From Escherichia phage ECD7: a stretch of 64,000 nucleotides of DNA. The notes beneath the pieces were generated by a model, which did not search any database, had not been told where the DNA came from, and saw only the letters and a program-made list of their open reading frames with translations. Of this stretch, positions 13,729-57,197 are shown piece after piece. Every line of letters starts with the position of its first letter. Positions within the stretch are counted from its first letter, which is position 1. Position numbers and translations under genes: made by a program. The DNA is taken from the sequence record NC_041936.1; one strand, written 5' to 3'.

Positions 13729-13736
13729 TATAAATA
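13729..13736 (+). promoter_or_regulatory. T4-type late promoter TATAAATA upstream of gene 9
   Basis: Exact TATAAATA 28 nt upstream of ATG 13764. Confidence 0.55.
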
Positions 13737-13763
13737 ATACATCATAACATGAGGAATTAAACA

Positions 13764-14618
13764 ATGGCACAAGTTCCAAAGAAAAGAATAGACACAGGTA
13801 CTGTCGGCAATCCATCGACTGGCGATATCTTATATGATGGCGGTAATAAAATTAACGATAACTTTGATTCAATATATGACGCATTTGCTGATCAGCGGTT
13901 TAAAGACGTAGACCACGGCGTGGGAAGAATGGTTATTCATGCAACCGGATACTATCAGAAGCATCCACGTCAAAGCTACGCTGGTTCCGCTGTTGAGATT
14001 GGGAGTCTACACGATATCGATACAACTCAAGGCGCACTTATTGCTATTCTACCTAAAGCGAAGGTTGGTGAGGGTGTTGTATTCATAAATAGTAACGGTA
14101 GCCTTTCAACGACGACACCGCTCAATATTCGAACTCAAGCAGGTGATTCTATTAGCGGGTATTCCGGTGATGCTACAATAACACAACCATTTTCAAAAGT
14201 CACTGTTTGGTGTACTGCCGTTGAAGGTAGTCGCGTAACATGGCGATTGGGTATCGAAAGTATGTTTACCGATACAACAACGCCATTAGATAAAACAGTT
14301 AACGTAACTGGAGTAGCAACAAACGTTGCTATTGCCGCAAAAACAGAATACGTTTCCATCAAATTATTAACTACCGCTAGCAATACATCCGGTTCAAAAA
14401 TGCGTTCAAGTGAAACGCTACTAATGATTGATTCTAAAGCCGGAAAAGTTTATGCGACGGAATATGCAGTTTTGCAGAAGACAGAAGATGAACTATACAC
14501 GGTTCGTTATTTCATCGGTTCCGGCGATAAAGTATATGCAGAGTATAAGGCTACTGGCGAAAATATTCGTTTAGCAGTTAAAGCCGTAGACACTATTAAA
14601 ATCGGGGTTGCTACATGA
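13764..14618 (+). CDS. 9: baseplate wedge / long tail fiber socket protein gp9
   Basis: 284 aa; N-terminus similar to gp10 N-terminus; synteny. Confidence 0.85.
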   Translation: MAQVPKKRIDTGTVGNPSTGDILYDGGNKINDNFDSIYDAFADQRFKDVDHGVGRMVIHATGYYQKHPRQSYAGSAVEIGSLHDIDTTQGALIAILPKAKVGEGVVFINSNGSLSTTTPLNIRTQAGDSISGYSGDATITQPFSKVTVWCTAVEGSRVTWRLGIESMFTDTTTPLDKTVNVTGVATNVAIAAKTEYVSIKLLTTASNTSGSKMRSSETLLMIDSKAGKVYATEYAVLQKTEDELYTVRYFIGSGDKVYAEYKATGENIRLAVKAVDTIKIGVAT

Positions 14619-16417
14619 AACAATTAATTAATATCGGTAACGTTGTTGATGACGGTACAGGTGATTATCTAAGAAAAGGTGGTCAAAAGATTAATGACAA
14701 CTTTTCTGAACTTTACACTAAGCTGGGGGATGGTGATATCCCTCATGCATCCGGCGCGTGGAAAACTCACACACAACCAGTATTAAAACCAAATTTTGGT
14801 GATGCATGGGCGATTAATACAACGAACAACGCTGTTTCTGTTGAATTGCCTAAAGGAAGCGCGAGTGATTATAATAAAACAATTAAACTTCGTGATGTTT
14901 GGCGCTCATGGGCTGCACATAACGTAACGTTGAAGCCAGCACAAGGTGATACCATTAAGGGATCTCCAATCGACCGTGAGTTGTATAAAGATTTCATGGA
15001 TGTTGAATTGGTTTATTGTGCGCCTGGACGTTGGGAATATGTCGAAAATAAACGAGTAGATACTATCACCACTTCCGATTTAAGCACAGTCGCTAAGGAA
15101 GTTTATATTGCAACCGAAGGACAAACAGACTTCCCCAATGTGTTTGGTTCCAATACTTACAACATTCGAAATGTTGAAGTGTATTATCGCGGTAACTTGC
15201 TTTATTATGGCAAGGATTTAACCGATGATTCTAACTATGGTTCAATCGGTGAAAATGGTGATATTGTTCCGCTGGACGGTAAAAGCATTAAATTACGCTT
15301 CCCTTGTTCGGCGGGTGATACCATTCAAATCATCACTTATATGGACGGTATCGCATCCTTCCGGTCAAGCTATATTACTCATACAATCCGCGTTTATGAA
15401 ACAGGAATGACCACTTTGGAATCCATCCCAGGTGAAGTTTGGGTTGGTGAACTAGCTAATAAGAAAGAATTTACTAATGCTGAATTAGGCGTAAGTAAGC
15501 GAGATCTTATTAATCCAAATTCATTTGAATTGCTGATCAACGGCACACAAATGATTAAAGCGGGCGATGCGGATTTACCTTTCTTTATTTGTGAAGGTGC
15601 TGACGGTGAAACAGAAGAAACCTGCGTACTTGCTGGCGGTCAATGGGTGGAATCTGGCGAAGATTATTCATTGATGTTCGACGAAAACAGCGTGGTGACT
15701 GGTATTAAATTATCTAAAGCACTAGATAACCGAGACACTATCACAATTCGCTGGTTTAATAATGATATCGGAACATTAATGGAATGGGACGGTGTAGGTG
15801 GTATTAAAGAAAAAGCAGATAAAATCTATCTTAATAACGAAGATGAAGTTACTCTGACAAATCGAATTGAATATACCGATTTCCAGAATCCAAGCCAAGC
15901 GACTAAACGCCCAATGGAAGATTATACAGGTCGTGTGATGGATATCTATTCCATATTCGATATTTTCTATCCTATAGGCACAATTTATGAAAATGCGCAT
16001 AACCCAGCTAACCCAGCGACCTATATGGGATTTGGTACATGGGTACGTTATGCAGAAAAAGAATTTTTAGTTGGTTGGTCCTCTGACGCAAGCGATCAAA
16101 ACTTCGCACTAAACAACAACGATCTTGATACACATGGTCAACCTACACACACCGCAGGTGGTAACGGTGGTGATGTTGCATACCAGATCAAGAAAAATAT
16201 GATTCCTGAATTACAGAGCGACGATCGAGTTCTTGTAAAAGATGATAACGGAAATATTATTATCGGTGGTTGTCAGGTAGACCCTGATGCAGTAGGTCCA
16301 GCGTTTACCAAATATCGCGAAGATAATGTTAAAGTTAATCAGGGAAATACCGATCCATCAATGATTGGTATTCTTCCTCCATACAGAACTGTCTATCGTT
16401 GGCTAAGGGTAGGTTAA
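14615..16417 (+). CDS. 10: baseplate wedge protein gp10
   Basis: 600 aa, synteny. Confidence 0.85.
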   Translation: MKQLINIGNVVDDGTGDYLRKGGQKINDNFSELYTKLGDGDIPHASGAWKTHTQPVLKPNFGDAWAINTTNNAVSVELPKGSASDYNKTIKLRDVWRSWAAHNVTLKPAQGDTIKGSPIDRELYKDFMDVELVYCAPGRWEYVENKRVDTITTSDLSTVAKEVYIATEGQTDFPNVFGSNTYNIRNVEVYYRGNLLYYGKDLTDDSNYGSIGENGDIVPLDGKSIKLRFPCSAGDTIQIITYMDGIASFRSSYITHTIRVYETGMTTLESIPGEVWVGELANKKEFTNAELGVSKRDLINPNSFELLINGTQMIKAGDADLPFFICEGADGETEETCVLAGGQWVESGEDYSLMFDENSVVTGIKLSKALDNRDTITIRWFNNDIGTLMEWDGVGGIKEKADKIYLNNEDEVTLTNRIEYTDFQNPSQATKRPMEDYTGRVMDIYSIFDIFYPIGTIYENAHNPANPATYMGFGTWVRYAEKEFLVGWSSDASDQNFALNNNDLDTHGQPTHTAGGNGGDVAYQIKKNMIPELQSDDRVLVKDDNGNIIIGGCQVDPDAVGPAFTKYREDNVKVNQGNTDPSMIGILPPYRTVYRWLRVG

Positions 16418-16418
16418 T

Positions 16419-17063
16419 ATGATTTCGAAAACACGTTCAAAAGCTAGTGTATTTTCCAGCGATGCGGCGTTTATTTCATACGATCCAGGATCGAAAGATC
16501 CTGTTATCGGTGGTTCTCGTCCAATTGGTGGCGTTAATGTCGATCAATCAAGAAAAGGTTCCTATGTAAACAACGTTCAATCTGCAATTGATGACCTTTA
16601 TTCGTTGTCAATGATCCGAATTGGTGACGTTTTAGTAACAACAAATTCAACTGCACCACAATCGGCAGGGCAAATTGAAACATTAACATTTGCAGGAAGC
16701 GTTAATAATCAACATAACCCAGAAGCAAAGAAAGTATTAATTGATGTTTTGGGTTATCCATTTATTGTTGATGTTGGGTCTTCCGGCGTTTCTCTATGTG
16801 AGAAAGTAACGGAAAAATTTACCGAACTAATGAATAAAAACATTATGTTCAAAGAAGTAAAAAGAAAAGGAAGTAGCAACGACCAATTAGAAATTCATTA
16901 TATCGATTCTCTTGAACATCAACCAACCGATATTAACAAGTACGGAATTACAATCACAGGAAATGTTGATTCTCCTGCTCGTGTTGGTTATGGTTCATGG
17001 TCTCGCATGGGTACAGAAGAGAAATTTGGAACTACCCTATATTATTTCAAACGTATTGCATAA
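16419..17063 (+). CDS. 11: baseplate wedge protein gp11 (short tail fiber connector)
   Basis: 214 aa, synteny. Confidence 0.85.
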   Translation: MISKTRSKASVFSSDAAFISYDPGSKDPVIGGSRPIGGVNVDQSRKGSYVNNVQSAIDDLYSLSMIRIGDVLVTTNSTAPQSAGQIETLTFAGSVNNQHNPEAKKVLIDVLGYPFIVDVGSSGVSLCEKVTEKFTELMNKNIMFKEVKRKGSSNDQLEIHYIDSLEHQPTDINKYGITITGNVDSPARVGYGSWSRMGTEEKFGTTLYYFKRIA

Positions 17064-17074
17064 GGTGATGTATA

Positions 17075-18475
17075 ATGGCAAACAATACTATTAACCACGT
17101 AAAAGACGATGCTCAATACGTCAAGTTTAACCCTGTAAATGATTGGCCTCAAAACATTACCAACGTACAAGCGGCTTTAGCCGCTATTAACGGCTTTGCT
17201 GTAAATGGATTGCCGGACGCTACGGAAGATACAGCCGGGATCGCTGCAATCGCAACTCAGGAAGAAGTAAACGACGGTACTGTAGATAATAAGATCGTGA
17301 CTCCAAAAACACTGGCTGTTAAAATGTCACGTCCAGATGCTACAAAAGAAGTAAAGGGTATCACCCGATTTGCCACGATGGAAGAATCGCTGCAAGAGAG
17401 CAACGAGAACATGGCAATCGGTCCAGACACACTAAACCATTACTTCACCACTAAAAAGGCGTCAGAGAGCGTTCAGGGGACTATTAAGATATGTTCTCTT
17501 GAGGCAGCAAAGATTGGCAGTGATGACACAATGGCAGTAACACCGAAAAAGATGCACACTGCCATTGCACAGATTGTGCCGGGATTAATTCCAGATCAAA
17601 ACACAGCAACCGAAAGCGCACAGGGTTTAGTTCAGTTAGCAACTAATGCGCAGGTTTTACAAGGCCAGATTCGAGAAGGTTTTGCAATTAGCCCTTATGC
17701 ATTTGCAAATGCTCGCGCCAATGAGAATCAGGCGGGTACTGTTAAGATCGCCAGCCAGTCACAGATGAATGCTGGTTCAGATGATACTGTAGTTGTTTCT
17801 GCTAAGAAGTTTGCAAGCACTAAGGCAACAACGTCTCAATACGGCATTGTTAAACTACGAGACACCGTAGGAAGTGAGGCTAACGCTGCACTATCAGCAA
17901 ATGCTAAGGTTCTTCCTAGCACTGGCGGTACGGTAAGCGGAAACGTCTATAAAGGTTCAAACTCAGACGGCAACCAGTTTGTTACTAAAAATGAATTAGC
18001 GAATCACGCAATGCCAATTGGTGGTATTATCCTTTCTGGATTCAATGCCGATCGAGGTGACTTTCTGATCTGTAATGGTCGTTCACTGAATAAAAATCAA
18101 TATCCGCAATTATTTTCTGCGATTGGTTATACCTTTGGTGGTTCAGGTGACAATTTTAATATTCCTGATATGCGCGGTTTAGTTGCTCGTGGTTGCGATC
18201 ATGGAAGAAACCTTGATCCAGGTCGTCGATTTGGTTCTTATCAAGAAGATGCAATGCAGAGAATTACTGGTAAATTCCCTGTAGCTGACCGCTGGCGCGG
18301 TTGGTATGGTGGCGCATTTACTGCACAGCGCGGTCAATGGAGCACGAACTATAAAAACGGTGGTGGTGATGATTGGGGTTCTACTGTTAACTTTGATTCA
18401 GGAAGATCCGTAAGAACGGCTAACGAGACTCGCGTCAAGAGTCTGGCATTAAACTATATCATAAGGGTGCGCTAA
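17075..18475 (+). CDS. 12: short tail fiber protein gp12
   Basis: 466 aa, repetitive Gly/Ala/Thr-rich fibre with C-terminal globular region; synteny. Confidence 0.8.
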   Translation: MANNTINHVKDDAQYVKFNPVNDWPQNITNVQAALAAINGFAVNGLPDATEDTAGIAAIATQEEVNDGTVDNKIVTPKTLAVKMSRPDATKEVKGITRFATMEESLQESNENMAIGPDTLNHYFTTKKASESVQGTIKICSLEAAKIGSDDTMAVTPKKMHTAIAQIVPGLIPDQNTATESAQGLVQLATNAQVLQGQIREGFAISPYAFANARANENQAGTVKIASQSQMNAGSDDTVVVSAKKFASTKATTSQYGIVKLRDTVGSEANAALSANAKVLPSTGGTVSGNVYKGSNSDGNQFVTKNELANHAMPIGGIILSGFNADRGDFLICNGRSLNKNQYPQLFSAIGYTFGGSGDNFNIPDMRGLVARGCDHGRNLDPGRRFGSYQEDAMQRITGKFPVADRWRGWYGGAFTAQRGQWSTNYKNGGGDDWGSTVNFDSGRSVRTANETRVKSLALNYIIRVR

Positions 18476-20244
18476 TGATTGAACAATTAAACATCCACGA
18501 GATCCCACATGTTGACGGTGTACCAAGCGAAGGACAGCACCGTATTAACTGGATCAAGAATGGCGAATGTTTAAGCGCAGCAACGACACAGACGGGCAAT
18601 GACGGGACGCTTAACCGCGCCCCGGTTGCAATTCAAGAAAACGTTGCACGCGTAAACGAAAACGCAAAATCAACCGTCGCTAAAGTTAACGAGGTTGTAA
18701 CGGCGGTTAACGATATTAAAACAACTTTAGGGGTAATTTCTGACGGAAGTATCATTGATGTGGTTAACCAGACTGTCGCAAAAGTTGAATCCGTCGAAGA
18801 GAACTTAGGAGAAACAGCAAGAACTCTGCAAACAACGGTAGACGCTGTATCAGAACTTAACATCAAGATTGGTGATCGCCCCGCTGCCGATCCGAGCACA
18901 AGAACAATCTATGATGACATTTCTTTCATCAAACAAGAAATGGGTTCTTATCCTAACTTTAATATCAATGGTTCCCCTGATGCTGGCAGTTCCGGTTCTG
19001 GCATCAAATACCGAGTTATTCAGAATACCGCAGCATTAAATGACCACGGTCGCCGAATCATTCAGCTTGAAAACGACTGGCAAGATTCTGACGTAGGCGA
19101 GTTAACAAGACAAGTTAACAAAATGCGCAGTGAGATCGGCGACACGTCTCTTGCAACACAAGAAAATGTGTATGTTCGTCTCCGCACCAACGCAAGAAAC
19201 ATTGCTAACTTATCAAACGAAGTTCTAGAAGTCAAGAAAGCAATTTTGTTTGATTCAATCCCTGATATCGGGACTAAAGTCACTACGCTGGGAACTAATT
19301 ATGAACGTCTAAACAATGATGTTAATGGTGTAGATTCCGGTATTCGTCCTCGTCTTCTGGCTGTCGAGAATAAGATCGGAACGCCTCAATCGGCTGGAAG
19401 CATTGACTATCGATTAACCAACACAGAGCGAGAATTTTTAGATCTTAAACAGGTTGTTGGTGTAAGCGGTGCTGACGGTTTGCGCGGTGAAGTTGTTCGA
19501 CTTTCCAATGAGATTGGCACTGACAGCGATCGACATACTCTAGCCGGACGTATTAAAGTTGTAGAAAACACTCAGGGTCGGTTAGAAGCAAGCGTACAGG
19601 ACATGGAACAGATTGTAGGTGATCGCGAATCAGGTTTGACCGCTGGCGTTATTAAACTATCAAGTGATATCTATGGCGATGATGGTTCAGAAGATCCATT
19701 TACTCAGAAAGGCGTGATTAAAATCGTCAAAGAGCTACAAACATCTAACGGAAACAAAGTAGATGATGTACCTGATGACGGTTTCCATTATCTGCGTAAG
19801 CGCGGAGAATGGGTGCAAGTTGCATATGCTGCTGGAGCATTTAAAAATACCGCAGATATTACGGTTGAACTTGACGAACAGGATGTTTATAAACCGATTC
19901 CGCTAAACGATATGACCGAAGAAGTTCCTGCGCGTGGAATGGTTAAGAGCGAATCTCTTGTTACGGTTAACGACAAAGGATTATTCCGTTGTGATTTCCG
20001 TTGTTCTGTAAATGCGGCACATAACGCTACTTTCGTAGTCGGTATTGCTAAAAATGGTCTGATTGTACATGAGGTACGAAATGGTCATTATGGAGCTGAT
20101 GATTTAATTAGCTATTCTACCAGTGCTTTCCTAAATATTGAAAAGGGCGACCGGATCGATATTCGCATTAAGGGCGTATCCGAAGAAGCATTAGCGCAAC
20201 AGCTACAAATTAAAGAGTTCCTCTTTGGGATTTCTCCGGTATAA
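18475..20244 (+). CDS. wac: fibritin (neck whiskers) with foldon-like segment and extra C-terminal C1q-like domain
   Basis: N-terminus IPHVDGVPSEGQHRINWIKNGE, long coiled coil, foldon-like DDGFHYLRKRGEWVQV at aa ~431-450, then ~139 extra residues. Confidence 0.85.
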   Translation: MIEQLNIHEIPHVDGVPSEGQHRINWIKNGECLSAATTQTGNDGTLNRAPVAIQENVARVNENAKSTVAKVNEVVTAVNDIKTTLGVISDGSIIDVVNQTVAKVESVEENLGETARTLQTTVDAVSELNIKIGDRPAADPSTRTIYDDISFIKQEMGSYPNFNINGSPDAGSSGSGIKYRVIQNTAALNDHGRRIIQLENDWQDSDVGELTRQVNKMRSEIGDTSLATQENVYVRLRTNARNIANLSNEVLEVKKAILFDSIPDIGTKVTTLGTNYERLNNDVNGVDSGIRPRLLAVENKIGTPQSAGSIDYRLTNTEREFLDLKQVVGVSGADGLRGEVVRLSNEIGTDSDRHTLAGRIKVVENTQGRLEASVQDMEQIVGDRESGLTAGVIKLSSDIYGDDGSEDPFTQKGVIKIVKELQTSNGNKVDDVPDDGFHYLRKRGEWVQVAYAAGAFKNTADITVELDEQDVYKPIPLNDMTEEVPARGMVKSESLVTVNDKGLFRCDFRCSVNAAHNATFVVGIAKNGLIVHEVRNGHYGADDLISYSTSAFLNIEKGDRIDIRIKGVSEEALAQQLQIKEFLFGISPV

Positions 20245-20253
20245 GAAATTAAA

Positions 20254-20273
20254 GGGGCGTTAAGCCCCTTTTT
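20254..20273 (+). terminator. rho-independent terminator after wac
   Basis: ggggc-gttaa-gcccc hairpin followed by TTTTT. Confidence 0.6.
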
Positions 20274-20290
20274 CGTTTATAGGTGATATT

Positions 20291-21223
20291 ATGTCAGGAT
20301 ATGTAACAAATAACCCAAGAGAATTAAAAGACGCTATTCTGCGTCGTTTAGGCGCACCAGTAATTAACGTAGAAGTAACAGAAGACCAGATTTACGATTG
20401 TATTCAGAGAGCATTAGAACTCTATGGGGAATATCATTTCGATGGTGTGAATAAAGGATATAAAGTATTTCGTGTTAGTGCAGAGCAAGCTCAACACGGG
20501 GTATTTGATTTGAGCGATTCTGGAGTATTCGCAGTAACTAAAATAATTCGAACAAACGTAGGTAGCGCGGCTACGATGGATGGCACTGCCGTTTATCCGT
20601 GGTTTACTGACTTTCTGTTGGGTTTAGCTGGTGTAAATGGCGGTTTAGGATCTGGCTGTAGTAAATTTTATGGTCCAAATGCAATGGGCGGTGATCTAGG
20701 ATATTTCGAACAGCTTATGAGCTATCGAGCCACTATGCAAAATATGCTCAATCCGCTTCCAGACTATTGGTATAATAGCGCAAACGGACAACTTAAGATA
20801 ACAGGAAACTTCCGAGAAGGTGATCTCATTGTTGTTGAATTATATGTTAAAAGCTATGTAGACGTTCCTGATATGATCGGCGCGGTTGCTGGTTATGCTC
20901 ATGCTGGAGGATGTTCTACCGCTGGCGGGATTAGCGCCGTTTATGATAATCCAACTGCTGGTTTAAGCGGGATTGTTGCTGGCATGGGACCGATCAGTGA
21001 GAACAAGCAGGGCGCATATAATAACCGTTGGGTTAAAGACATGGCAACCGCTTTCACTAAGGAGGTGTGGGGGTCCATCATGGCTAAACATCAAGGTCTG
21101 CAATTACCCGGCGGTGTCACTGTTGATGGTATCCGAATCATTGAAGAAGCACGCGCCGACATTGAGAAATTGCGACAAGAACTAGAATTATTAGATCCTC
21201 CGTTCGGCATCCTCATGATTTGA
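20291..21223 (+). CDS. 13: neck protein gp13
   Basis: 310 aa, synteny. Confidence 0.85.
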
Positions 21224-21232
21224 TTAAATGTG

Positions 21233-21262
21233 TTGACTAATATGTTCTCGTTAGTGTATGAT
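21233..21262 (+). promoter_or_regulatory. sigma70-like promoter (TTGACT, 18-nt spacer, TATGAT) upstream of homing endonuclease gene
   Basis: -35 21233..21238, -10 21257..21262; overlaps a 9-bp inverted repeat 21242..21250 / 21267..21275. Confidence 0.45.
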
Positions 21263-21289
21263 CTGACGAGAACATAAAAGGAGAATCAT

Positions 21290-21874
21290 ATGGCATATTA
21301 TTATCTATATCAAATAACAAATAATTTAAATGGGATGGTCTATGTTGGTATGAGAACGTCCAAAAAACCAATAGAAAAGGATTCTTATTGGGGGAGCGGA
21401 AAACGAATTAAAAGAGCAATAAAAAAGTATGGAATAGAGAACTTCACAAAAACTATTCTTTCCACACACAACACGTTAGAAGAACTAGCTTTAGCAGAAA
21501 AAAAGATAGTGACTAAGGAATTTGTAGAAAGAGAAGATACATATAATATTGCTCTGGGTGGAGTGAATAGAGGTTCTTTGTGGGATGACATGGACGAAGA
21601 AACAAAAAATGAAGCAAGAAGAAAAATATCTGAAAAAGCATCCAGTCGAAAAAGAGAATCTCACTCAGACGAGACTAAAAATAAAATGAGTCAATCGGCA
21701 AAAAATAGAAAGAGAGATTGGGAAAATTTTAAAGGCGCAAGAAAAATTATGGCAGAAGGTGTTCTATACCTAACCACTCAAGAATGTTGTAGAAAGTATG
21801 GGATATCAGCCGCTTCTATGAGGAAACGAGTAAAGTCAACCGCAGAAAAATGGAAGGAGTTTTATTATGTTTGA
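21290..21874 (+). CDS. GIY-YIG homing endonuclease (Seg-like)
   Basis: N-terminal [17 protein letters not shown] (GIY...YIG), NUMOD3-like [12 protein letters not shown], basic C-terminus; inserted between genes 13 and 14; AT-rich. Confidence 0.8.
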
Positions 21875-22619
21875 CTCTACATTATTTGCCAGATTGGAGT
21901 CACAGAAGGATTATGAGAACACTAGACAAACAGAAATTCTCAATCCTTATGTGAATTTCAATTCACATACAAATACACAAACTCTAGCCGATATTATGGT
22001 TGCCGAGTCTATACAAATGCGCGGCGTCGAGATGTACTACATACCGAGAGAATTTGTTAAACCTGATATGATATTTGGGGAGGACGTACAAAGCAAATTC
22101 ACTAAGGCGTGGAAGTTTGCAGCGTACATAAATTCTTTCGATGGGTATGAGGGTGCTGGCAATTTCTTTCAATCTTTCGGTTATACCGCTAATGATGAAT
22201 TAACCATAACCATAAATCCAAATTTATTCAAACATCAAGTAGACAACCAAGAGCCTAAATCCGGCGATTTGTTTTACATTCCTATGAGCAACGATTTATT
22301 CGAAATCTCATACGTCGAGCCATATCAGCCGTTTTTTCAGGCTGGCAAAAATGCCATGCGTAAAATTATTGCAGAGAAATTCGTGTATAGCGGCGAGGAA
22401 TTGCGACCAGAATTACAACGCAATGATGGAATTAATGTTGATGAGTTTGCGGATCTGGATCTTGCACCGATCACTAATCTGGACGGGTTAACAGATATCA
22501 ACTTAGATCAGTACAAAGAAGATAAGCAATTCAGAAGCGAAGGACAAGATTTTATTGATCCGTTTGATCCTATTAATGCAAGGGTTCACCTTTCGCCGAT
22601 TTTTGATAAATACTCATAA
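21867..22619 (+). CDS. 14: neck protein gp14
   Basis: 250 aa, synteny. Confidence 0.85.
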
Positions 22620-22632
22620 ACAAGGGGGTCAA

Positions 22633-23466
22633 ATGTTCGGTTGGCACTATAATTCGTCAATTAGACGGTATATTGTATTGCTGGGTAATTTATTCTCCGG
22701 CGTACAAATTAAAAGGGTGCGTAGCGACGGTGAGCGTTTTATTAAAGTTCCTATCACCTACGCAAAGAAAGAAAAATTCATGATGAGTCTGGACAAATAT
22801 AACAACATCTCAAGTGAGGAAGACGTAGCAAAGGTAGAAACTATTTTACCGCGTATGTGTCTTTCTTTGATTGATATGACATACGCCCAGAACTTTAAAA
22901 CAAATATTGCAAATAAGACAGTACCAAAATATACGGCTGATGGAATCAGGAGCATAACACAATATAACCCTGTACCATATAAGTTTACTTTCGAGTTAGG
23001 GATTTATACGCGTAACGAAGATGATATGTTTCAGATAATTGAACAGATTCTTCCTTACTTCCAGCCTCATTTTAACTGTAAGATTAAAGAACTACACGGT
23101 AATGATGTATGGATTGATCGAGATATTCAGGTCACAATTAGTTCTATTACTCCAGATGAACAGGTAGGCGAAGATAAGTTTTCTCGTCGTCGTCTTGAGT
23201 GGACCATTATGTTCGAATTTATCGGGTTTATATATCCTCCAGCTACCGACGTTAAGGGGGAAATCAGAACGATTTATCTTGATTTTCATGCCAATTCTCG
23301 TGAATTGAATCCTAGCGGTAATTTTGAATCAGTGGATCACGAGGTCGTTAAACGTGACGTCGAGCAAGAAGAATGGGATGGAACAATCAAAGAATCATAT
23401 TCTAGTGATATTCCAATACCAGTTGCACCGACCCCACCGGGTCCACGTATTGTAAGAGAATTTTAA
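22633..23466 (+). CDS. 15: tail sheath stabilizer / tail completion protein gp15
   Basis: Start at ATG 22633 (AAGGGGGT SD) rather than track start 22555, which overlaps gene 14. Confidence 0.8.
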   Translation: MFGWHYNSSIRRYIVLLGNLFSGVQIKRVRSDGERFIKVPITYAKKEKFMMSLDKYNNISSEEDVAKVETILPRMCLSLIDMTYAQNFKTNIANKTVPKYTADGIRSITQYNPVPYKFTFELGIYTRNEDDMFQIIEQILPYFQPHFNCKIKELHGNDVWIDRDIQVTISSITPDEQVGEDKFSRRRLEWTIMFEFIGFIYPPATDVKGEIRTIYLDFHANSRELNPSGNFESVDHEVVKRDVEQEEWDGTIKESYSSDIPIPVAPTPPGPRIVREF

Positions 23467-23479
23467 GAGGTAATTTATT

Positions 23480-26790
<3,311 letters not shown>

Positions 26791-52374: not shown

Positions 52375-52452
52375 TTTAAACCTCCCATATAACAGAAAAC
52401 GGGGCTAGTATAAAACTAGTCCCCGTTTGAGTCAACCATTATTTCTTAAAAA

Positions 52453-54504
52453 TTACATTTTAAATTTATCTGGCATTGCGTCTACAGATACCAGATCAGC
52501 GATAAGCTGACGTAGAGTTGCCTTATCTGCTTTCTTACGTTCGGTTTTAGCTTCGCTAATGAAGCTGGAGAAAGACAGGTCAGAAGCAGGTTTAACAACA
52601 CCCTCACGGATGAATGCATCACCGTCCGCGATCATCTCACCAGATTCTTGTAATGCTGCCAGTTCACTTTTGTTCATAATATGTGCCTCAATGTAATAAG
52701 TTTCTTGTGAATCCGTCGATGCCGTAGCACGAGTTACCGTATCAAAGGATAACACAACACCGCGAGGAAGTAAAATCTCGCATTCTTTGTAAGCAAATGC
52801 TTTGTTACCTACTGGCAATACAGGGATGTTTTCCGCGCCAGCGATAGAGAAAGCAACATTAGCGCCACCTTCACCGCGAGAGCCAGCCATAGAATCAACA
52901 CCAGCAACGGCACTAGCCACGTTTGCATTCCAGCCACCAAAAATATTAGGCGCAAGGGAAGTGCTCACATAGTTTTTAAAGTAAAACGCTTTTTGCTTAC
53001 GTGCAGTTTCCCACATTTGCGACCGGAAGTCCATACCACGATACAGAATAGTACCCGGATCAAGTTTAACACCATAGTTAGAGAAGGCATTATCCAGTGC
53101 ATCGCACATCTTGACCAATTCTTCTGGATCTGCGATTCCCTCAAACTCTTCCAGCTTGCGATCAGTTAGGAAGTTGTTCATATTGATGTATGCTGCATCG
53201 GCATATTCGCTCAACACAAAACCTTCCGCGCCCGGCAGATCAAGATCAATATCTGCCATCATTTCACCCATGTTGCTAGCAATTGCTTCAAACATACCGG
53301 ACGCAACATTACGAAGGGCATCGGTTTTAATCTGGGTGATATGACTACGCAGCATTTCAGCTTTTACATCTGCTGGCATAGACTGGTCTACTCGATCCAT
53401 TGCCAGGGCGGTGATCTTGTTTTCGAATACTTCCTCGCTCATGATTTCTTTTAAGCGTTTGATTGAGGCTGCGATAACTTCCGCAGACAACGGATCATAT
53501 TGATCCTGAACTTTTACCAGTTCGCTTACTGCGTATTTTGCATCGGCTTCGCTTTCAAAAATAGTACGCATGAAACCATAGCGAGTGATAATATCACTTG
53601 TCCAGTCATTCAGAGAACGGGCGGTTGAACGTTCTAAGGCTTGACGGTCAATCAGAGTATTAAACTGTTTCTTAGGTTCGGCTTCGGTGATATCTTCTTC
53701 CGGTTTAAGATTAATTTTTTCTGGATGATTCACGTAGTCGCTGTTATAGGTCGCTTGAGTTTTCAGCATTTCTTCTTTAGTCAAACGAGATTTAGCCGCT
53801 ACGCGTTGTTCTGCTTCCGCGTTTCGTTCTTCTTCTGACACAAGACTAGCCGCATACGCCTCATCTTTAGTCAGAGATTCACCAGTAGCCTTAGATACCC
53901 AGCGATCACCTAAATCACTTTCTACTTTAGTGAACAAGGATTCATCAAGTTTAATCCCTTTAATCTTATCAATCGCCATCCCGCGACGTTTGACAACAAC
54001 TAAAGCGATCTTTTTGCTGGTCATTACTTCCTGCTGGAATACTTCAAACTTCGGTGTACGACGCACCAAACGCTCTATAACGCGCTTAACCAGTTCGGTC
54101 TTACCTTTCATGCGGGATACGTTAAAACGGAACATAACAGCGTCTAATTGCGCTTTACGGGCTGTTTCCATAACCACATCAAAAGCACTTGCCATAACTG
54201 CAATCGGGTTATCACCTAGACCATTTTTAAGCTGTACAATACGACCGCTTTTGTTCATTTCACACAGTACAACGTGTGCGGTCTTGTCACCCATACGAAT
54301 AATTTTAGGTGTTTTGTTGGTGAAGTTGCAAAGACGGACAATCACATCTTTATCGCGTGTCTGTACTGCAAAAAGCTGTTTAGGATTCTGCTTAGGCTTT
54401 AAGCATTGTACCGGAGCAATACTGCCAAAGTTTTCTTCCTCTTCCGTCAACAGCCATTTCTCGAAAGATTCAATCATTAGATCGTCGATTTCTAAGTTAA
54501 ACAT
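52453..54504 (-). CDS. alt: Alt ADP-ribosyltransferase (head-packaged)
   Basis: 683 aa (T4 Alt ~682); C-terminal ILYRGMDF...YVSTSLAP...ECEILLPRG. Confidence 0.85.
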   Translation of the reverse strand: MFNLEIDDLMIESFEKWLLTEEEENFGSIAPVQCLKPKQNPKQLFAVQTRDKDVIVRLCNFTNKTPKIIRMGDKTAHVVLCEMNKSGRIVQLKNGLGDNPIAVMASAFDVVMETARKAQLDAVMFRFNVSRMKGKTELVKRVIERLVRRTPKFEVFQQEVMTSKKIALVVVKRRGMAIDKIKGIKLDESLFTKVESDLGDRWVSKATGESLTKDEAYAASLVSEEERNAEAEQRVAAKSRLTKEEMLKTQATYNSDYVNHPEKINLKPEEDITEAEPKKQFNTLIDRQALERSTARSLNDWTSDIITRYGFMRTIFESEADAKYAVSELVKVQDQYDPLSAEVIAASIKRLKEIMSEEVFENKITALAMDRVDQSMPADVKAEMLRSHITQIKTDALRNVASGMFEAIASNMGEMMADIDLDLPGAEGFVLSEYADAAYINMNNFLTDRKLEEFEGIADPEELVKMCDALDNAFSNYGVKLDPGTILYRGMDFRSQMWETARKQKAFYFKNYVSTSLAPNIFGGWNANVASAVAGVDSMAGSRGEGGANVAFSIAGAENIPVLPVGNKAFAYKECEILLPRGVVLSFDTVTRATASTDSQETYYIEAHIMNKSELAALQESGEMIADGDAFIREGVVKPASDLSFSSFISEAKTERKKADKATLRQLIADLVSVDAMPDKFKM

Positions 54505-54537
54505 TTTATATCCTCTAGTTGATAACCTATAAACCTA

Positions 54538-54545
54538 TATTTATG
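54538..54545 (-). promoter_or_regulatory. late-promoter-like CATAAATA upstream of alt
   Basis: 7/8 match to TATAAATA on minus strand, 34 nt upstream of alt ATG. Confidence 0.3.
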
Positions 54546-54570
54546 AAAAAGGGGCTTAACGCCCCCTTTT
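54546..54570 (-). terminator. hairpin terminator (aaaaaggggc-ttaac-gcccccttttt)
   Basis: GC stem flanked by A5 and T5; follows gene 54572..54784. Confidence 0.55.
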
Positions 54571-54571
54571 A

Positions 54572-54784
54572 TTATAATGCACCATCAAGCAATTGCTCTA
54601 AGGTGTATCCTGAATAGTCTTTTTCAATCAGGATATATTTTCCTACTCGTTTAATCCAACCGCGCATTTCAACGTATTCTGCGTAGTTGATGGTGCGAGT
54701 TGTTCCATCTTCCAGTAATGCAGTACCGATTTCGTTGATGCGGTCATAAGTTACGTCGGTAATGATGATTTCGATGTTAGCCAT
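54572..54784 (-). CDS. hypothetical small protein (70 aa from ATG 54784)
   Basis: Begins MANIE like the product of 56662..56913; track ORF has 17-codon extension from a GTG. Confidence 0.5.
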   Translation of the reverse strand: MANIEIIITDVTYDRINEIGTALLEDGTTRTINYAEYVEMRGWIKRVGKYILIEKDYSGYTLEQLLDGAL

Positions 54785-54820
54785 TTGATACTCATTAGTA
54801 GTTCGTTTCGGTATGTGTGC

Positions 54821-54849
54821 ATTATAGGGGATCACCGATCCCTTGTCAA
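54821..54849 (-). promoter_or_regulatory. promoter-leader cassette copy a (TTGACA, 17-nt spacer ggggatcggtgatcccc-like, TATAAT)
   Basis: Minus-strand -35 at 54844..54849, -10 at 54821..54826. Confidence 0.6.
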
Positions 54850-54857
54850 CAACTTTT

Positions 54858-55376
54858 TTAGTTATTTTTTAATTGCTCATCTTGCAATAGGGCAATCACA
54901 TGCTGGCGATGTTCTTCCGATTGAGGCACACCGAAAAAGTTTGTTTTGTAGAAATACTCTAATCGGTCTTCTCGTGTGCTCTCTTCCATCATGATCGCGG
55001 GTAGTCCGAGATTTCGGAAACGTCGCTTTTCTGCTGGCGTAAAATCACTGTAATACAGCATATAATCATCATTACCAGCAATGCTAAACTCATCCTTCAT
55101 GAAAGAGAATATTGCGTTTAAACGCTGTTTACCGTCCACGATTTCGATTTCATAGCGAGAGCCATCATCAATCTTAGCCATTGCGATAGCACCAACCGGA
55201 AAATCATTAATCAGGTTTTCGATAAACATACGTTTGTTTTCTGTGTCCCATACCAAAGGACGCTGATAATCTGGGTTCATGTTGATATAGCCATCTTCTA
55301 ACCATGCTTCGTAAACAGAGATGACAAAGTTTTTAGTATTGGTATAGTAACGGCGTTTAGGCGTTAAACGGTTCAT
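54858..55376 (-). CDS. DUF262/ParB-like nuclease-superfamily protein (172 aa from ATG 55376)
   Basis: Motifs DYQRPLVW and IVDGKQRLNAI; start has GGAG SD and abuts upstream stop. Confidence 0.55.
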   Translation of the reverse strand: MNRLTPKRRYYTNTKNFVISVYEAWLEDGYINMNPDYQRPLVWDTENKRMFIENLINDFPVGAIAMAKIDDGSRYEIEIVDGKQRLNAIFSFMKDEFSIAGNDDYMLYYSDFTPAEKRRFRNLGLPAIMMEESTREDRLEYFYKTNFFGVPQSEEHRQHVIALLQDEQLKNN

Positions 55377-55377
55377 A

Positions 55378-55707
55378 TTATAGTCTCCTGAATGGATCAT
55401 CACGTAAATCAATATCTTTTAAGAACTCATCCCATGAATGGCGGATATTGTTCTTAATTCTCCAGATAAGCGCAGGGATTGAACGCTCTCCCATCTGGAA
55501 GTAAGGATCATATGATCCGTATGCCCAATATGCTACTACAATTCCACAATCAGCGCAATAGTATTCTATTTCACTTGCTGGCGACCAAAGTCCATCAATA
55601 TGATCAGTGATCTTGCTTTCGATGTTATGGCTATGACAATCAGGGCAACGGATGCAATGACCTTGTTTATCGTAATTTGACGTTAGAGAATACTTAAACA
55701 ATCTCAT
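55378..55707 (-). CDS. small zinc-ribbon protein (109 aa)
   Basis: CIRCPDCH ... CADCG Cys pairs. Confidence 0.55.
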   Translation of the reverse strand: MRLFKYSLTSNYDKQGHCIRCPDCHSHNIESKITDHIDGLWSPASEIEYYCADCGIVVAYWAYGSYDPYFQMGERSIPALIWRIKNNIRHSWDEFLKDIDLRDDPFRRL

Positions 55708-56423
55708 TATAGATCCTTATTGGCTTCAAATACTGCCTTTGCGAATCCTCGCGGCGTAAGTGACCTGATAGTCTTTGTTCTGGTTCCTTTCCCGCCTAGC
55801 TTAGAATGCTGTTTGCTGTACCCTTTATTAATCTGCAACGGTTTCTTTTCTGGCATTATAAAGCCTTGTCCGGTCCATAAGCAAGTCTTTTTCGGGTACA
55901 TATCACGGGCGGCAATATACTCAGGAAACGTAGGATGCTTATCATCTTCCGGCAAATAACCGCCATATTCCCACGGATGGAACATGTAATCAGGCTTACG
56001 CCACATACTAGAGATAACGCTTACAGGATTCTCTATCATATAGGGAACTCCTAGCCATTCACCCAAATAAGCGGTTATTTTAGCTGCCCGTACATCATGA
56101 ACTTGAATCAATGGTCCTTGTTCTCGTTTCTTTCGTTCAAAGTGTGCAGCGCCACTAACAGCTAAATTGGTGCACGGTGGGAATGCAAATATAATATCCG
56201 GTTTCCCCCATTCAAGGTCCATTGCTCTTTCCAGCCAGTTCAAATCAATCCAGGTGTTTACATAGGTAATGTTTGGATGTTCAAATCTGGTATTATACTT
56301 TTTGTATGTACCGTGGTCGGCGTCATCCGCATTAAAGCAGACTACCTTATGACCTGCTTTAGCCCATTCTAGCCCCATTATCCCCGATCCGTCAAAGTTG
56401 CAGAATATTAATTTTTGTTTCAT
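55707..56423 (-). CDS. C5-cytosine methyltransferase-like protein (238 aa)
   Basis: FDGSGIMG (motif I-like), FAFPPCTNLAVSG (PC motif IV-like), MIENPVS (ENV motif VI-like); shorter than typical C5-MTases. Confidence 0.5.
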   Translation of the reverse strand: MKQKLIFCNFDGSGIMGLEWAKAGHKVVCFNADDADHGTYKKYNTRFEHPNITYVNTWIDLNWLERAMDLEWGKPDIIFAFPPCTNLAVSGAAHFERKKREQGPLIQVHDVRAAKITAYLGEWLGVPYMIENPVSVISSMWRKPDYMFHPWEYGGYLPEDDKHPTFPEYIAARDMYPKKTCLWTGQGFIMPEKKPLQINKGYSKQHSKLGGKGTRTKTIRSLTPRGFAKAVFEANKDL

Positions 56424-56665
56424 ATACGACCCTTTAACCCAGCACAGATTTTAGTCGGTTCTTTACCGTGCCACATTAAGTAAAGTCCGTTAGTGCGGCC
56501 TTGTTTTGTATATGATTCTTTTCTGATCTTCTTATAGTATCGTGCTTCCTCAGCCGATTGTTTAGAATGCCGATCATAAAGGAAGAGGAACAAAGGCCAA
56601 CCATTAGCGGCCTTAATGCAGTTATTAAGAAATTCCTTATTGCGTTTAATTAATTTTCTTTTCAC
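56420..56665 (-). CDS. hypothetical basic protein (81 aa)
   Basis: ORF coupled to flanking genes by 4-nt overlaps. Confidence 0.5.
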   Translation of the reverse strand: MKRKLIKRNKEFLNNCIKAANGWPLFLFLYDRHSKQSAEEARYYKKIRKESYTKQGRTNGLYLMWHGKEPTKICAGLKGRI

Positions 56666-56913
56666 GCTGCCCCCATTGGTTTGATAGTAACAGAATCTAA
56701 AAGACCTTTGTTAGCCAGTTCGCGGCAAGTTTTCAGATCCGTAACTTCCCAGCCAGCCGCAATCAGGTTATCAATGAGGCTGTTAGCAACTTCCTCGCTC
56801 ATGAAAGAGCACTGTTTGCCGATGGTGTAGCGCACACGCTGTAATTTCAGTTTACGGAAGCCTTTAACGTTCAGGTCTTTAGCGATTTTCTTTGCGGTTT
56901 CGATGTTAGCCAT
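56662..56913 (-). CDS. hypothetical protein (83 aa)
   Basis: ORF with GGAGAATC SD, downstream of promoter copy b. Confidence 0.55.
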   Translation of the reverse strand: MANIETAKKIAKDLNVKGFRKLKLQRVRYTIGKQCSFMSEEVANSLIDNLIAAGWEVTDLKTCRELANKGLLDSVTIKPMGAA

Positions 56914-56953
56914 TGTTTGATTCTCCTAAGTGGTATCTCGTCTTGATGGTTGT

Positions 56954-56982
56954 ATTGTAGGGGAGTTATCCTCCCCTGTCAA
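56954..56982 (-). promoter_or_regulatory. promoter-leader cassette copy b (TTGACA, palindromic spacer ggggaggataactcccc, TACAAT)
   Basis: -35 at 56977..56982, -10 at 56954..56959. Confidence 0.6.
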
Positions 56983-56996
56983 CACTTTTTATAAAA

Positions 56997-57164
56997 TTAT
57001 TTGTTAATTTCTGGTGCGTTGCTCGGATAGTAACCTTCTTTAACGCCCAGGTATTTCGCAACCATCCCTACAATCTTCTGTGCTACTACAATGTCAAATT
57101 TCAGATAATCTTCGCCGTGGGTTTCAATGATATATGCTTCACATGCTGCTTTAGTCTCGAACAT
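56997..57164 (-). CDS. hypothetical small protein (55 aa), paralogue of 60255..60422
   Basis: MFETKAACEAYIIETHGEDYLKFDIVVAQKIVGMVAKYLGVKEGYYPSNAPEINK; below ORF-track size cutoff. Confidence 0.6.
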   Translation of the reverse strand: MFETKAACEAYIIETHGEDYLKFDIVVAQKIVGMVAKYLGVKEGYYPSNAPEINK

Positions 57165-57197
57165 TTTGATTCTCCTATTTCGTTTCGGTATGGGTGT

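Follow-up and report, generated by a model that had tools for sequence, protein, structure and literature searches.

A Seg-type GIY-YIG endonuclease cassette with a promoter-embedded hairpin between neck genes 13 and 14 of Escherichia phage ECD7

The junction between neck genes 13 and 14 of Escherichia phage ECD7 carries what is very probably a free-standing Seg-type GIY-YIG homing cassette, which would spread by intronless homing and whose promoter-embedded hairpin would act in RNA that reads through from gene 13. The cassette was analysed within a 64,000-nt stretch of the phage genome (record NC_041936.1; hereafter the window), and its assignment to a known kind of mobile element, of which it is an unremarkable case, is well supported. 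Its host group is Krischvirus (the RB49/Phi1/ECD7 group). The gene, its family (Seg/GIY-YIG) and its regulatory context (promoter-early stem-loops, PeSLs) are already known for RB49/Phi1-type phages; the cassette is of little importance for discovery, as the gene is annotated in several deposited genomes and both the family and the PeSL context have been published.

The inserted cassette and its endonuclease

A preliminary description of this DNA placed a 194-aa ORF in an AT-rich insert between two genes that are neighbours in T4, with a stop codon overlapping the start of gene 14, and all of these points are confirmed (Table 1). The cassette has a GC content of 0.339; that of gene 13 is 0.436 and that of the window as a whole 0.406. 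In T4 a single nucleotide separates genes 13 and 14. The stop codon of the endonuclease gene (TGA, 21872-21874) and the ATG of gene 14 (21867-21869) lie within an 8-nt overlap, in ATGTTTGA. Gene 13 is near-identical to its counterpart in empty-site phages as far as the stop codon, and beyond it 34 nt of native spacer (TATTGGGGGAGTATTCCCCCATTTGGAGTAACAT in RB49 and pEJ01) have been swapped for the cassette. The insert is intergenic, extending from the gene 13 stop to the gene 14 start, and is found sporadically among relatives, as for a free-standing element.

Table 1. Features of the gene 13-gene 14 junction, in window positions
Feature	Position	Strand	Details
Gene 13 (neck protein, head-tail adaptor), left flank	20291..21223	+	PHROG head-tail adaptor Ad2 match
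Inserted cassette between genes 13 and 14	21226..21866	+	641 bp; GC 0.34
Sigma70-type (phage early-type) promoter-like site	21233..21262	+	TTGACT (21233-21238), 18-nt spacer, TATGAT (21257-21262)
Stem-loop enclosing the -10 box	21241..21276	+	14-bp stem, arms 21241-21254 and 21263-21276; 8-nt loop TGTATGAT
Shine-Dalgarno sequence of the endonuclease gene	21278..21283	+	AAGGAG; 6 nt 5′ of the ATG, 2 nt 3′ of the stem
Endonuclease ORF	21290..21874	+	194 aa, ATG start
Cassette 3′ terminus	21843..21874	+	includes the gene 14 Shine-Dalgarno sequence AGGAG (21855-21859) and the gene 14 ATG
Gene 14 (neck protein, head closure), right flank	21867..22619	+	Pfam T4_neck-protein match, 9e-101
Divergent gene 14 tract	21867..22316	+	first 450 nt; complete in endonuclease carriers only

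No exact match to the late promoter (TATAAATA) is present on the + strand from position 13729 to 26786, and late expression of gene 14 must therefore cross the cassette by read-through. A late promoter within the cassette itself was also considered and rejected, there being no exact TATAAATA and fewer one-mismatch matches than expected by chance. Rfam families gave no match in the interval 20200-22700, even at E ≤ 1.

The ORF is well supported as an intact Seg-type GIY-YIG homing endonuclease gene, and its product would be expected to cleave DNA. The canonical GIY-YIG N-terminus recognized in the preliminary description is borne out by the Pfam family SegE_GIY-YIG (PF19835), which scores 29.5 bits against a cut-off of 25 bits, and by a match at 6e-46 to PHROG_314 ('homing endonuclease'). 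A profile of 30 homologues matched the I-TevI catalytic domain (1mk0) at 3e-4. In the AlphaFold model, residues 1-90 have pLDDT values of 96-98 and form the alpha/beta fold of GIY-YIG enzymes; when this model was used in a Foldseek search, the best matches were 1mk0 and 1ln0, with a probability of 1.00 and target-normalised TM scores of 0.61-0.64.

The residues that define the family are also in place. The GIY...YIG motif pair is represented by YLY (5-7) and VYVG (17-20), which align to Y6 and Y17-V-G of I-TevI. Homologue sets of 30 and 40 sequences show no variation at Y7, G20, Y33, G35-S36-G37, E70 and N86, and little or none at Y18. The catalytic Glu and Asn of I-TevI are E75 and N90, and its conserved Arg is R27. 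A catalytic Glu/Asn pair is present in the endonuclease, with N86, in a YN motif, aligned to Y89-N90 and with E70 placed one position off E75; the region of R27 falls in an alignment gap, and the endonuclease has an R22 that is H or R among homologues.

The C-terminal tail is, as judged from alignment, I-TevI-like, comprising a NUMOD3-like minor-groove helix and a helix-turn-helix. The NUMOD3-like motif proposed in the preliminary description does not reach significance with Pfam alone, where NUMOD3 scores 13.6 bits (cut-off 20.4) and I-TevI_DNA-bd 20.3 bits (cut-off 27), but it gains support from residues 110-192, which match the I-TevI DNA-binding domain 1i3j at E = 1.3e-4 (phmmer), with the segment aligned to HSDITKSKISEKMK. 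A zinc finger was not found in the linker, the sole cysteines of the protein being adjacent (C165-C166). The endonuclease appears from modelling and alignment to share with I-TevI, the endonuclease of the T4 td intron, both its catalytic fold (1mk0, 1ln0) and its type of C-terminal module (1i3j); it differs in that it is not intron-encoded, has no zinc finger, is 194 rather than 245 aa long, and has no homing-site-like operator that could be found.

With regard to its identity, the protein is 100% identical to the annotated 'homing endonuclease' of ECD7. The same gene lies in the same place between genes 13 and 14 in phage Phi1, where it is annotated as 'SegC homing endonuclease' (phi1p149.1, ABR24660.1), and nothing material differs between the two: the 13-segC-14 loci have 98.6% nucleotide identity and the 69 nt upstream of the endonuclease gene are 100% identical, while at the 3′ end of gene 14 the products differ in length (250 aa in the window and 246 aa in Phi1). 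The gene was named as a Phi1-specific gene, segC, absent from RB49 (Arbiol et al. 2010, PMC2839356). 'SegC' is only a best-hit label and does not denote orthology. The segC product of RB59, a T4-type phage, is approximately 35% identical to the endonuclease, a value comparable to those of matches annotated segD or segE. Orthology to T4 segC was rejected on the basis of this identity, the different locus and the promoter-like site of the cassette; T4 segC is flanked by 5.1 and 5.3, has no promoter and overlaps its upstream ORF, whereas the gene in the window lies between genes 13 and 14, has its own early-type promoter-like site and overlaps its downstream gene.

Distribution at the junction and the divergent gene 14 tract

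Universal presence of the gene among relatives had been named beforehand as an outcome that would count against a mobile endonuclease gene, and the distribution is clearly otherwise. The junction is empty, consisting of 36 nt, in 41 of 56 related records; this gene is found in four records, and one or another of three different Seg-like genes in the remaining 11. Two relatives in IMG/VR have an empty junction as well. This sporadic occurrence supports the initial reading of a Seg-like homing endonuclease gene lodged between the neck genes. Presence varies even within one species, as kvi (species Krischvirus RB49) carries the gene and RB49 itself lacks it. Four different Seg-like genes occupy this position in different phages, which makes the 13-14 junction a hotspot for them. 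The gene described here is carried by Phi1, ECD7, kvi and phiS. The close kinship of all known carriers speaks against the homing reading, in that vertical inheritance in a single sub-lineage, together with ordinary recombination, could give the same pattern.

The cassette adjoins a stretch of gene 14 that differs sharply from the empty allele. In all carriers, nt 1-450 of gene 14 are 24% diverged from that allele, mostly at synonymous sites, and relative to RB49 the stretch contains 110 nucleotide differences, which affect 76 codons synonymously and 15 non-synonymously. Divergence begins exactly at the cassette junction, and past nt 450 the sequence returns abruptly to near identity with RB49. 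The empty-site phages pEJ01 and Makalu_002 have only distal parts of the tract, which begin near nt 130 or nt 330 and end at nt 450. No donor of the tract was found in the phage collection, in which the next-best sequences are 76-78% identical and no closer than RB49-type alleles. Divergent patches that have no endonuclease gene are also present nearby, for example in wac.

A 450-nt tract that adjoins the insert and is complete only in its carriers has the form of the flanking co-conversion associated with marker exclusion. We infer that it is a co-conversion tract containing the immune form of the target, a reading that is consistent with homing and does not prove it. The target is likely to be confined to at most about 485 bp, made up of the spacer and gene 14 nt 1-450, and the partial tracts of pEJ01 and Makalu_002 could narrow it further.

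Intronless homing, as modelled on T4 SegF, SegG, SegE and SegB, would begin with early synthesis of the enzyme from the cassette's own sigma70-type promoter. In a mixed infection the enzyme would then cut the endonuclease-free allele between the 13-14 spacer and gene 14 nt 450, the sole interval of difference between the alleles. Repair of the double-strand break would copy the cassette and adjoining gene 14 sequence into the cut genome, and carriers would be rendered immune by the replaced spacer and the recoded flank. The T4 Seg endonucleases (SegA-G) mediate intronless homing and marker exclusion, and overlaps of their genes with neighbouring ORFs are common (PMC2988022). The cassette resembles these free-standing GIY-YIG genes in its position between conserved genes, in its sporadic distribution and in a flank that has diverged from endonuclease-free alleles.

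The same locus could be a relic, with an endonuclease that was once mobile and is now inactive or domesticated, vertical inheritance within a single sub-lineage of Phi1, ECD7, kvi and phiS, and a gene 14 tract that is no more than an old recombination patch. This account would fit the presence of the gene in only four isolates, whose cassettes are 98-99.5% identical, and the lack of any relative at 58% to 95% identity among 5.8 billion proteins. It would also fit the protein itself, which at 194 aa is shorter than the other three junction endonucleases, lacks a zinc finger and has just one weak NUMOD3-like helix, and the existence of nearby mosaic patches unrelated to endonuclease genes. Several features make a relic distinctly unlikely, however. 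The ORF is intact, keeps all family-invariant residues and is confidently predicted to adopt the GIY-YIG fold; a promoter-like site and a Shine-Dalgarno sequence of its own are retained; the gene is present in kvi and absent from RB49 within one species; and the divergence sets in precisely at the cassette junction, with the whole tract confined to carriers. The homing cassette is the preferred reading. The bracketing of its likely target, the junction hotspot and the hairpin beside the ribosome-binding site are modest points that would be of use for studies of marker exclusion and for the engineering of ECD7/Phi1-type therapeutic phages, because the cassette could bias recombination in phage cocktails.

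A promoter-like site inside a hairpin

The sigma70-like promoter noted in the preliminary description, with its -10 box in the loop of a hairpin, is present (TTGACT-18-TATGAT). E26 keeps the design in a cassette with a coding sequence approximately 61% identical to that of the window cassette. The site matches the consensus at 10 of 12 positions, its extended -35 context is GTGTTGACT, and the context GTGTTGAC recurs at the genome's strongest promoter-like sites. A hexamer pair by itself is not above chance, as a scan of 10 kb found 18 sites where shuffled sequences gave an expectation of 27.6; the site in the window is backed by its position, by its conservation in the E26 cassette and by the shared GTGTTGAC context.

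A fortuitous match would leave the cassette promoter-less, expressed only by read-through from gene 13, and the hairpin, inherited along with the insert, would do no more than mark a boundary in the RNA or stabilize it. The absence of enrichment in the scan and the 18-nt spacer agree with this possibility, and precedents exist: in T4, segC lacks a promoter, as do six further free-standing endonuclease genes (PMC2988022), and at the 13-14 junction itself the G37-3-type insert brings no promoter and makes use of the native spacer. Yet both hexamers are not only kept but improved in the E26 cassette (TTTACA-17-TATAAT) in spite of the divergence of the coding sequence, the GTGTTGAC context is that of the strongest promoter-like sites in the genome, and other PeSL promoters of Phi1 and RB49 have been shown to be very strong (PMC2839356). 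A chance match is accordingly regarded as improbable, and a functional early promoter is preferred.

The inverted repeat around the -10 box had been described as a perfect 9-bp repeat; it is real and longer than claimed, with 14 pairs that include one G.U (21252/21265). The hairpin has a folding energy of -24.5 kcal/mol (z = -4.9), a stability reached by none of 200 shuffled sequences, and the whole 64-kb window contains 14 inverted repeats of this size, this one included. It has no U-tract, unlike an intrinsic terminator. In empty-site phages a native GGGGGAgtatTCCCCC stem-loop follows gene 13, and the promoter hairpin stands in its place. The stem core GTTCTCG/CGAGAAC is identical in the window and in E26, while the pairs next to it are AT/AT in the window and CC/GG in E26, giving two fully compensatory pairs from two sequence variants only. 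A specific search pattern found no further variants in IMG/VR or metagenomes, and the six matches of a relaxed pattern in IMG/VR were all unrelated chance palindromes.

The G.U pairs in both versions of the hairpin fit pairing in the + strand RNA. Transcripts from the cassette's own promoter cannot form the hairpin, because they would start at around 21268-21270, inside the 3′ arm; only + strand read-through from gene 13 yields RNA able to fold in this way. The most likely role of the hairpin, and the weakest part of the overall reading, is that of a boundary structure between gene 13 and the cassette on read-through RNA, where it might serve as an attenuator, an insulator or an mRNA-stability element.

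Promoter-plus-stem-loop cassettes, the PeSLs, were defined in RB49 and Phi1 (Arbiol et al. 2010, PMC2839356; Comeau et al. 2014), and their subclasses include stem-loops that overlap the -10 box (PMC2839356); Arbiol et al. counted 52 of them in Phi1. The promoter and hairpin in the window are a PeSL-type composite element. They occur in the same phage group and have the same architecture, in which a sigma70-like promoter and a stem-loop are followed by a Shine-Dalgarno sequence and a start codon directly 5′ of a variable gene. Canonical PeSLs differ in that the hairpin described here has a longer stem of mixed sequence enclosing the -10 box, has no U-tract and lies in a conserved virion module. 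A resemblance to the PeSL sequence family, with its polyG/polyC stem and AT-rich upstream sequence, is not seen, and the canonical G/C-stem copies elsewhere in the window look different.

Alternative readings of the hairpin

If the inverted repeat functioned as DNA, it could be a palindromic operator around the -10 box, through which a dimeric repressor or the endonuclease itself shuts the promoter off. The arms do flank the -10 box, and about 22 bp, or two helical turns, separate their centres. Nevertheless, this is the least probable of the readings considered and is held to be very improbable. Seg and I-TevI type enzymes bind DNA as monomers. The palindrome is moreover imperfect as DNA: the window has one G.T position and E26 has two or three, which can pair only as G.U, in + strand RNA. 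The differences between the window and E26 are compensatory pair changes, the signature of a folded strand. When the promoter and hairpin were aligned locally to the empty 13-14 site, 210 of 300 shuffled sequences scored as well or better, again to the disadvantage of an operator. The favourable precedent is that of I-TevI, which binds an operator and represses its own promoter (PMC2988022). An operator in the I-TevI style, resembling the homing site, was rejected in view of the shuffling result.

The preliminary description had also suggested that the hairpin limits endonuclease expression. This is not supported, given that RNA from the cassette's own promoter would lack the hairpin, that the Shine-Dalgarno sequence lies outside the stem and that predicted accessibility is opposite in E26. 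A more specific version is a translational switch of the kind described for I-TevI, segB and mobE of T4, in which the hairpin would hide or crowd the ribosome-binding site in read-through RNA and only RNA from the internal promoter would be translated, so that the endonuclease is made early only. The promoter-in-hairpin design matches the published T4 scheme, and the end of the stem lies 2 nt from the Shine-Dalgarno sequence, recalling the seg43(25) hairpin of Aeromonas phage 25. Base-pair probabilities computed for read-through and promoter-initiated RNA give a predicted accessibility of the Shine-Dalgarno sequence that depends on context and is opposite in the two cassettes: in the window, several read-through contexts leave the sequence partly paired and the own-promoter transcript leaves it free, whereas in E26 pairing is greater in the short transcript and the sequence stays mostly accessible when the RNA reads through. 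The T4 hairpins contain the ribosome-binding site, but here, although an internal promoter is present, the stable stem excludes the Shine-Dalgarno sequence, and the pairings farther out are marginal and vary with context. The promoter here is also of the sigma70 type, in contrast to the late type of the T4 examples. A switch of this kind is rather unlikely, though less so than an operator, and masking of the ribosome-binding site by the hairpin is not likely. The dependence on context and the reversal between the window and E26 speak against sequestration of the site.

The E26 cassette agrees with that of the window at its other end too, with 32 of 32 nucleotides identical at the cassette 3′ terminus. 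No further cassette with this terminus was found in IMG/VR, and two metagenome matches were unrelated SD-ATG strings. The Krischvirus 13-14 junction might then be a docking site at which Seg bodies are swapped between conserved ends, the promoter-hairpin on the 5′ side and the 32-nt terminus with the gene 14 ribosome-binding site on the 3′ side. The hairpin may in addition be a transcript-class switch that acts on late read-through RNA and confines the endonuclease to early expression, a mirror of the late-only control of I-TevI in T4. This combined proposal is speculative and has a low probability.

The nearest parallel to the position of the hairpin is found in seg43(25) of Aeromonas phage 25, where a hairpin of unexplained function has been described (Edgell, Gibb and Belfort 2010, PMC2988022). 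In both cases a very stable hairpin lies directly 5′ of the ribosome-binding site of a Seg-type endonuclease gene and does not include it. The two differ in that a promoter is embedded in the hairpin of the window, and in their surroundings, which are neck genes here and a split DNA polymerase gene there. The cassette thereby provides a second example of a stable hairpin that adjoins, and does not mask, the ribosome-binding site of an endonuclease gene.

The inserted endonuclease gene

The sequence examined is a genome segment of a Krischvirus of the RB49/Phi1 group, in which a 641-bp insert separates the T4-type neck genes 13 and 14, which are 1 nt apart in T4, and replaces 34 nt of the 36-nt spacer found in relatives that lack any insert (empty-site phages). 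As first described, this insert is AT-rich and carries a 194-aa ORF that ends in ATGTTTGA, where its TGA overlaps the ATG of gene 14. Each observed element of that description was confirmed. Coordinates of the locus and of related features are collected in the table.

Features of the 13-14 junction and related loci (window coordinates unless another phage or locus is named)
Feature	Coordinates	Remarks
wac (fibritin) 3′ patch	about 19890-20190	~300 nt
Gene 13, T4-type neck gene	20291-21223	
Insert	21226-21866	GC 0.34
-35 box, TTGACT	21233-21238	18-nt spacer to -10 box
Hairpin arms	21241-21254 and 21263-21276	14 pairs, one G.U
-10 box, TATGAT	21257-21262	
Shine-Dalgarno (SD), AAGGAG	21278-21283	2 nt past stem, 6 nt ahead of endonuclease ATG
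Endonuclease ORF	21290-21874	194 aa
Cassette end shared with E26	21843-21874	last 32 nt
Gene 14, T4-type neck gene	21867-22619	
Gene 14 variant 3′ end	about 22580-22640	last ~40 nt, 14-15 junction
Terminase large gene	23974-26790 (+)	938 aa
PeSL-type elements	about 52435, 54849, 56982, 57226, 58709, 60484, 61630, 62025 (-)	cluster 52400-62300
RB49/pEJ01 empty 13-14 spacer	L002/L003 2434-2469	holds stem-loop GGGGGAgtatTCCCCC, 4 nt upstream of gene 14 SD
kvi gene 13 patch	L008 about 2250-2310	gene 13 nt 750-810
E26 start region (annotated start ATGTATAATC...)	L004 2456-2497	
E26 likely true start	about 2495	MNHYVYKITN
FL20 Seg-like gene	L010 4251-5006	between genes 14 and 15
Metagenomic upstream stem-loops	L013 about 2440-2475, L014 about 655-695, L015 about 250-285	

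The predicted protein supports the interpretation as a Seg-like homing endonuclease. It scores over the cut-off for Pfam SegE_GIY-YIG and matches PHROG_314 ('homing endonuclease') at 6e-46, and a profile of 30 homologues matches the I-TevI catalytic domain (1mk0) at 3e-4. Residues 1-90 are modelled confidently by AlphaFold (pLDDT 96-98), with I-TevI catalytic domain structures as the sole significant PDB matches of the model (probability 1.00, TM 0.61-0.64), bearing out the GIY-YIG N-terminus. Sets of 30 and 40 homologues show no variation at Y7, G20, Y33, G35-S-G37, E70 and N86, and almost none at Y18. Residues 110-192 align with the I-TevI DNA-binding domain (1i3j, 1.3e-4), an alignment that covers a C-terminal helix-turn-helix and a NUMOD3-type helix, the latter as the preliminary description had it; the protein has no zinc finger. 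Because of these domain matches, the confident fold, the invariant residues and the I-TevI-type alignment, the enzyme looks intact, with an architecture of GIY-YIG domain, linker, one minor-groove helix and helix-turn-helix.

The gene has been annotated before. The locus is 98.6% identical to that of Phi1, whose annotation names the ORF 'segC, SegC homing endonuclease' (phi1p149.1), and the upstream 69 nt are 100% identical in Phi1 and kvi; the 'homing endonuclease' of Escherichia phage ECD7, probably the phage from which the window comes, is 100% identical to the protein described here. segC is listed among seven genes present in Phi1 and missing from RB49 (Arbiol et al. 2010, PMC2839356). 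T4-type SegC is about 35% identical to the protein, and T4 segC is promoter-less and lies between 5.1 and 5.3, whereas the present gene lies between 13 and 14 behind a promoter-like site of its own; 'SegC' is a best-hit label only. Since the gene is already annotated and belongs to published classes, the feature is of low interest.

Distribution and diverged flanks

Comparison of the 13-14 junction in relatives agrees with the idea of an insert, in that the gene is not universal. Among 56 related phage records, part of them classed by span length and annotation, five classes were found: an empty junction (41 records, including RB49, pEJ01 and JSE), the present gene (four: two records of Phi1, kvi and phiS), and Seg-like genes of 271 aa (seven, Makalu_002 type), 214 aa (three, G37-3 type) and about 298-311 aa (one, E26). 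IMG/VR holds two further relatives with an empty junction. Phage kvi, of species Krischvirus RB49, carries the gene, and RB49 itself does not.

The flanks are asymmetric. Gene 13 is near-identical to that of RB49 as far as the stop codon, and nt 1-450 of gene 14 differ at 110 positions, or 24%, with synonymous changes in 76 codons and non-synonymous ones in 15; thereafter there is an abrupt return to near identity. The first 30 nt are the most diverged bin (12/30), not significantly above the rest of the tract. The complete tract is exclusive to the four carrier records, and no donor was found in the database, the next-best match being 76-78% identical. Two phages treated as empty-site hold just its distal part, which begins near nt 130 in pEJ01 and near nt 330 in Makalu_002.

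Co-conversion through double-strand-break repair has been described for T4 SegF, SegG, SegE and SegB (review PMC2988022), and the distribution and flank pattern are those expected of such a process, suggesting that the gene is or was mobile. Such mosaics could also arise when co-infecting phages recombine in the ordinary way, and unrelated divergent patches are present nearby. If the gene homes, its target and the basis of self-immunity would have to lie in the interval of at most about 485 bp that runs from the spacer to nt 450 of gene 14, because carrier and empty alleles differ nowhere else.

Other diverged tracts were noted in the region. The wac patch, a mosaic, is 17-28% diverged from RB49 and pEJ01, near-identical to E26, and has no associated endonuclease gene. 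The kvi gene 13 patch (16 differences) falls on the bins where the E26 allele is most diverged, which suggests that phages with different junction endonucleases have exchanged sequence in the past. The gene 14 3′ end is unlike that of all compared relatives and gives a protein of 250 rather than 246 aa with a different C-terminus; a further short replacement may have taken place at the 14/15 junction.

The promoter-embedded hairpin

The sigma70-like promoter reported upstream of the gene was confirmed as the promoter-like pair TTGACT-18-TATGAT. The inverted repeat that overlaps it, described as a perfect 9-bp repeat with the -10 box in its loop, does enclose that box (8-nt loop, TGTATGAT) and is longer than stated, with one G.U among its 14 pairs. 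The predicted energy is -24.5 kcal/mol (z = -4.9), no shuffle of 200 being equally stable, and 14 inverted repeats of such size, this one included, occur in the 64 kb. The E26 cassette, about 61% identical in coding sequence, has the same design (TTTACA-17-TATAAT, with a stem around the -10 box): the two stems share the core GTTCTCG/CGAGAAC, and two pairs beside it change in a compensatory manner from AT/AT to CC/GG. The promoter-embedded hairpin is thus real and conserved. Both versions use G.U pairs, which fits a fold of + strand RNA (or single-stranded DNA) better than an operator in duplex DNA.

The last 32 nt of the cassette, which hold the gene 14 SD and ATG, are also identical in the window and E26 across interiors of about 61% identity. 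Together with the common promoter-hairpin, this could reflect an exchange of cassettes between conserved ends, although selection acting on the signals for gene 14 translation and on the KWKEFYYV motif, conserved at the C-terminus, is a simpler explanation of the identity.

The arrangement resembles the promoter-early stem-loop (PeSL), a composite cassette in which a strong sigma70-like early promoter is combined with a stem-loop, and an SD and start codon come next; each genome has about 52, and in some subclasses the stem-loop lies between the hexamers or overlaps the -10 box (PMC2839356). The window holds 7 copies of the extended -35 context GTGTTGAC[AT], where 2.9 would be expected; of the six other copies, four lie at strong promoter-like sites, two of these being PeSL-type sites in the 52-62 kb hyperplastic region. 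That region holds a cluster of canonical PeSL-type elements (AAAAAGTTGTTGACA-GGGGATC..GATCCCC-TATAAT).

The proposal that the hairpin limits endonuclease expression found no support. RNA initiated at the embedded promoter would have its 5′ end at about 21268-21270, within the 3′ arm, so that the hairpin could form only in read-through RNA from gene 13; the SD lies outside the stem, and its predicted accessibility is inconsistent between the window and E26. No consensus late promoter was found on the + strand from 13729 to 26786, and the essential gene 14 would therefore have to be reached by read-through; since the hairpin also has no U-tract, a strong terminator role is unlikely. The hairpin bears no likeness to the empty target site and has no Rfam match.

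In empty-site phages another stem-loop, GGGGGAgtatTCCCCC, occupies the equivalent place just ahead of the next gene's SD; the present cassette deletes it and substitutes its own, and a stem-loop likewise opens the Makalu_002 cassette. Because each of these junctions has one, structured RNA after gene 13 seems to be kept whichever occupant is present. The closest published parallel, the seg43(25) hairpin of Aeromonas phage 25, is itself unexplained and abuts the ribosome-binding site without masking it. Our best guess is that the hairpin would serve as a boundary element on read-through RNA, through attenuation, insulation or stability, any single role being proposed tentatively and as less likely than not.

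The nearest homologues from metagenomes are 46-49% identical and sit in unrelated contexts, beside genes for PTPS, GTP cyclohydrolase and helicase. All three loci have a different conserved stem-loop, GTCCTTCGCGGT...ACCCAAGGAC, 30-40 nt before the start codon, and genes of this Seg subfamily may repeatedly carry stable hairpins in their leaders.

Other endonuclease genes near the neck genes

The other junction endonucleases, products of three different Seg-like GIY-YIG genes, are paralogues that share 29-45% identity with the present protein. Each type has a distinct junction and a diverged flank of its own. In gene 13 the final ~400 nt are diverged in the E26 type and the final ~70 nt in the Makalu_002 type; in the G37-3 type, whose gene is promoter-less and reuses the native spacer as leader, it is the first ~63 nt of gene 14. 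A different Seg-like gene lies between genes 14 and 15 in FL20. With several different Seg-like genes at these positions, the neck-gene junctions of Krischvirus are a hotspot for Seg-type genes, of which no account was found in the literature collection searched.

The annotated start of the E26 'hypothetical protein' falls in the -10 box and hairpin loop; the true start is likely the downstream ATG, which has TAGGAG ahead of it. In the window the large terminase gene encodes 938 aa, a form also present in kvi and Makalu_002; the Phi1 and RB49 proteins have 607 aa. The extra segment matches Pfam LAGLIDADG_3 at residues 364-422, before Terminase_6N and Terminase_6C, and so resembles an intein that carries a homing endonuclease.
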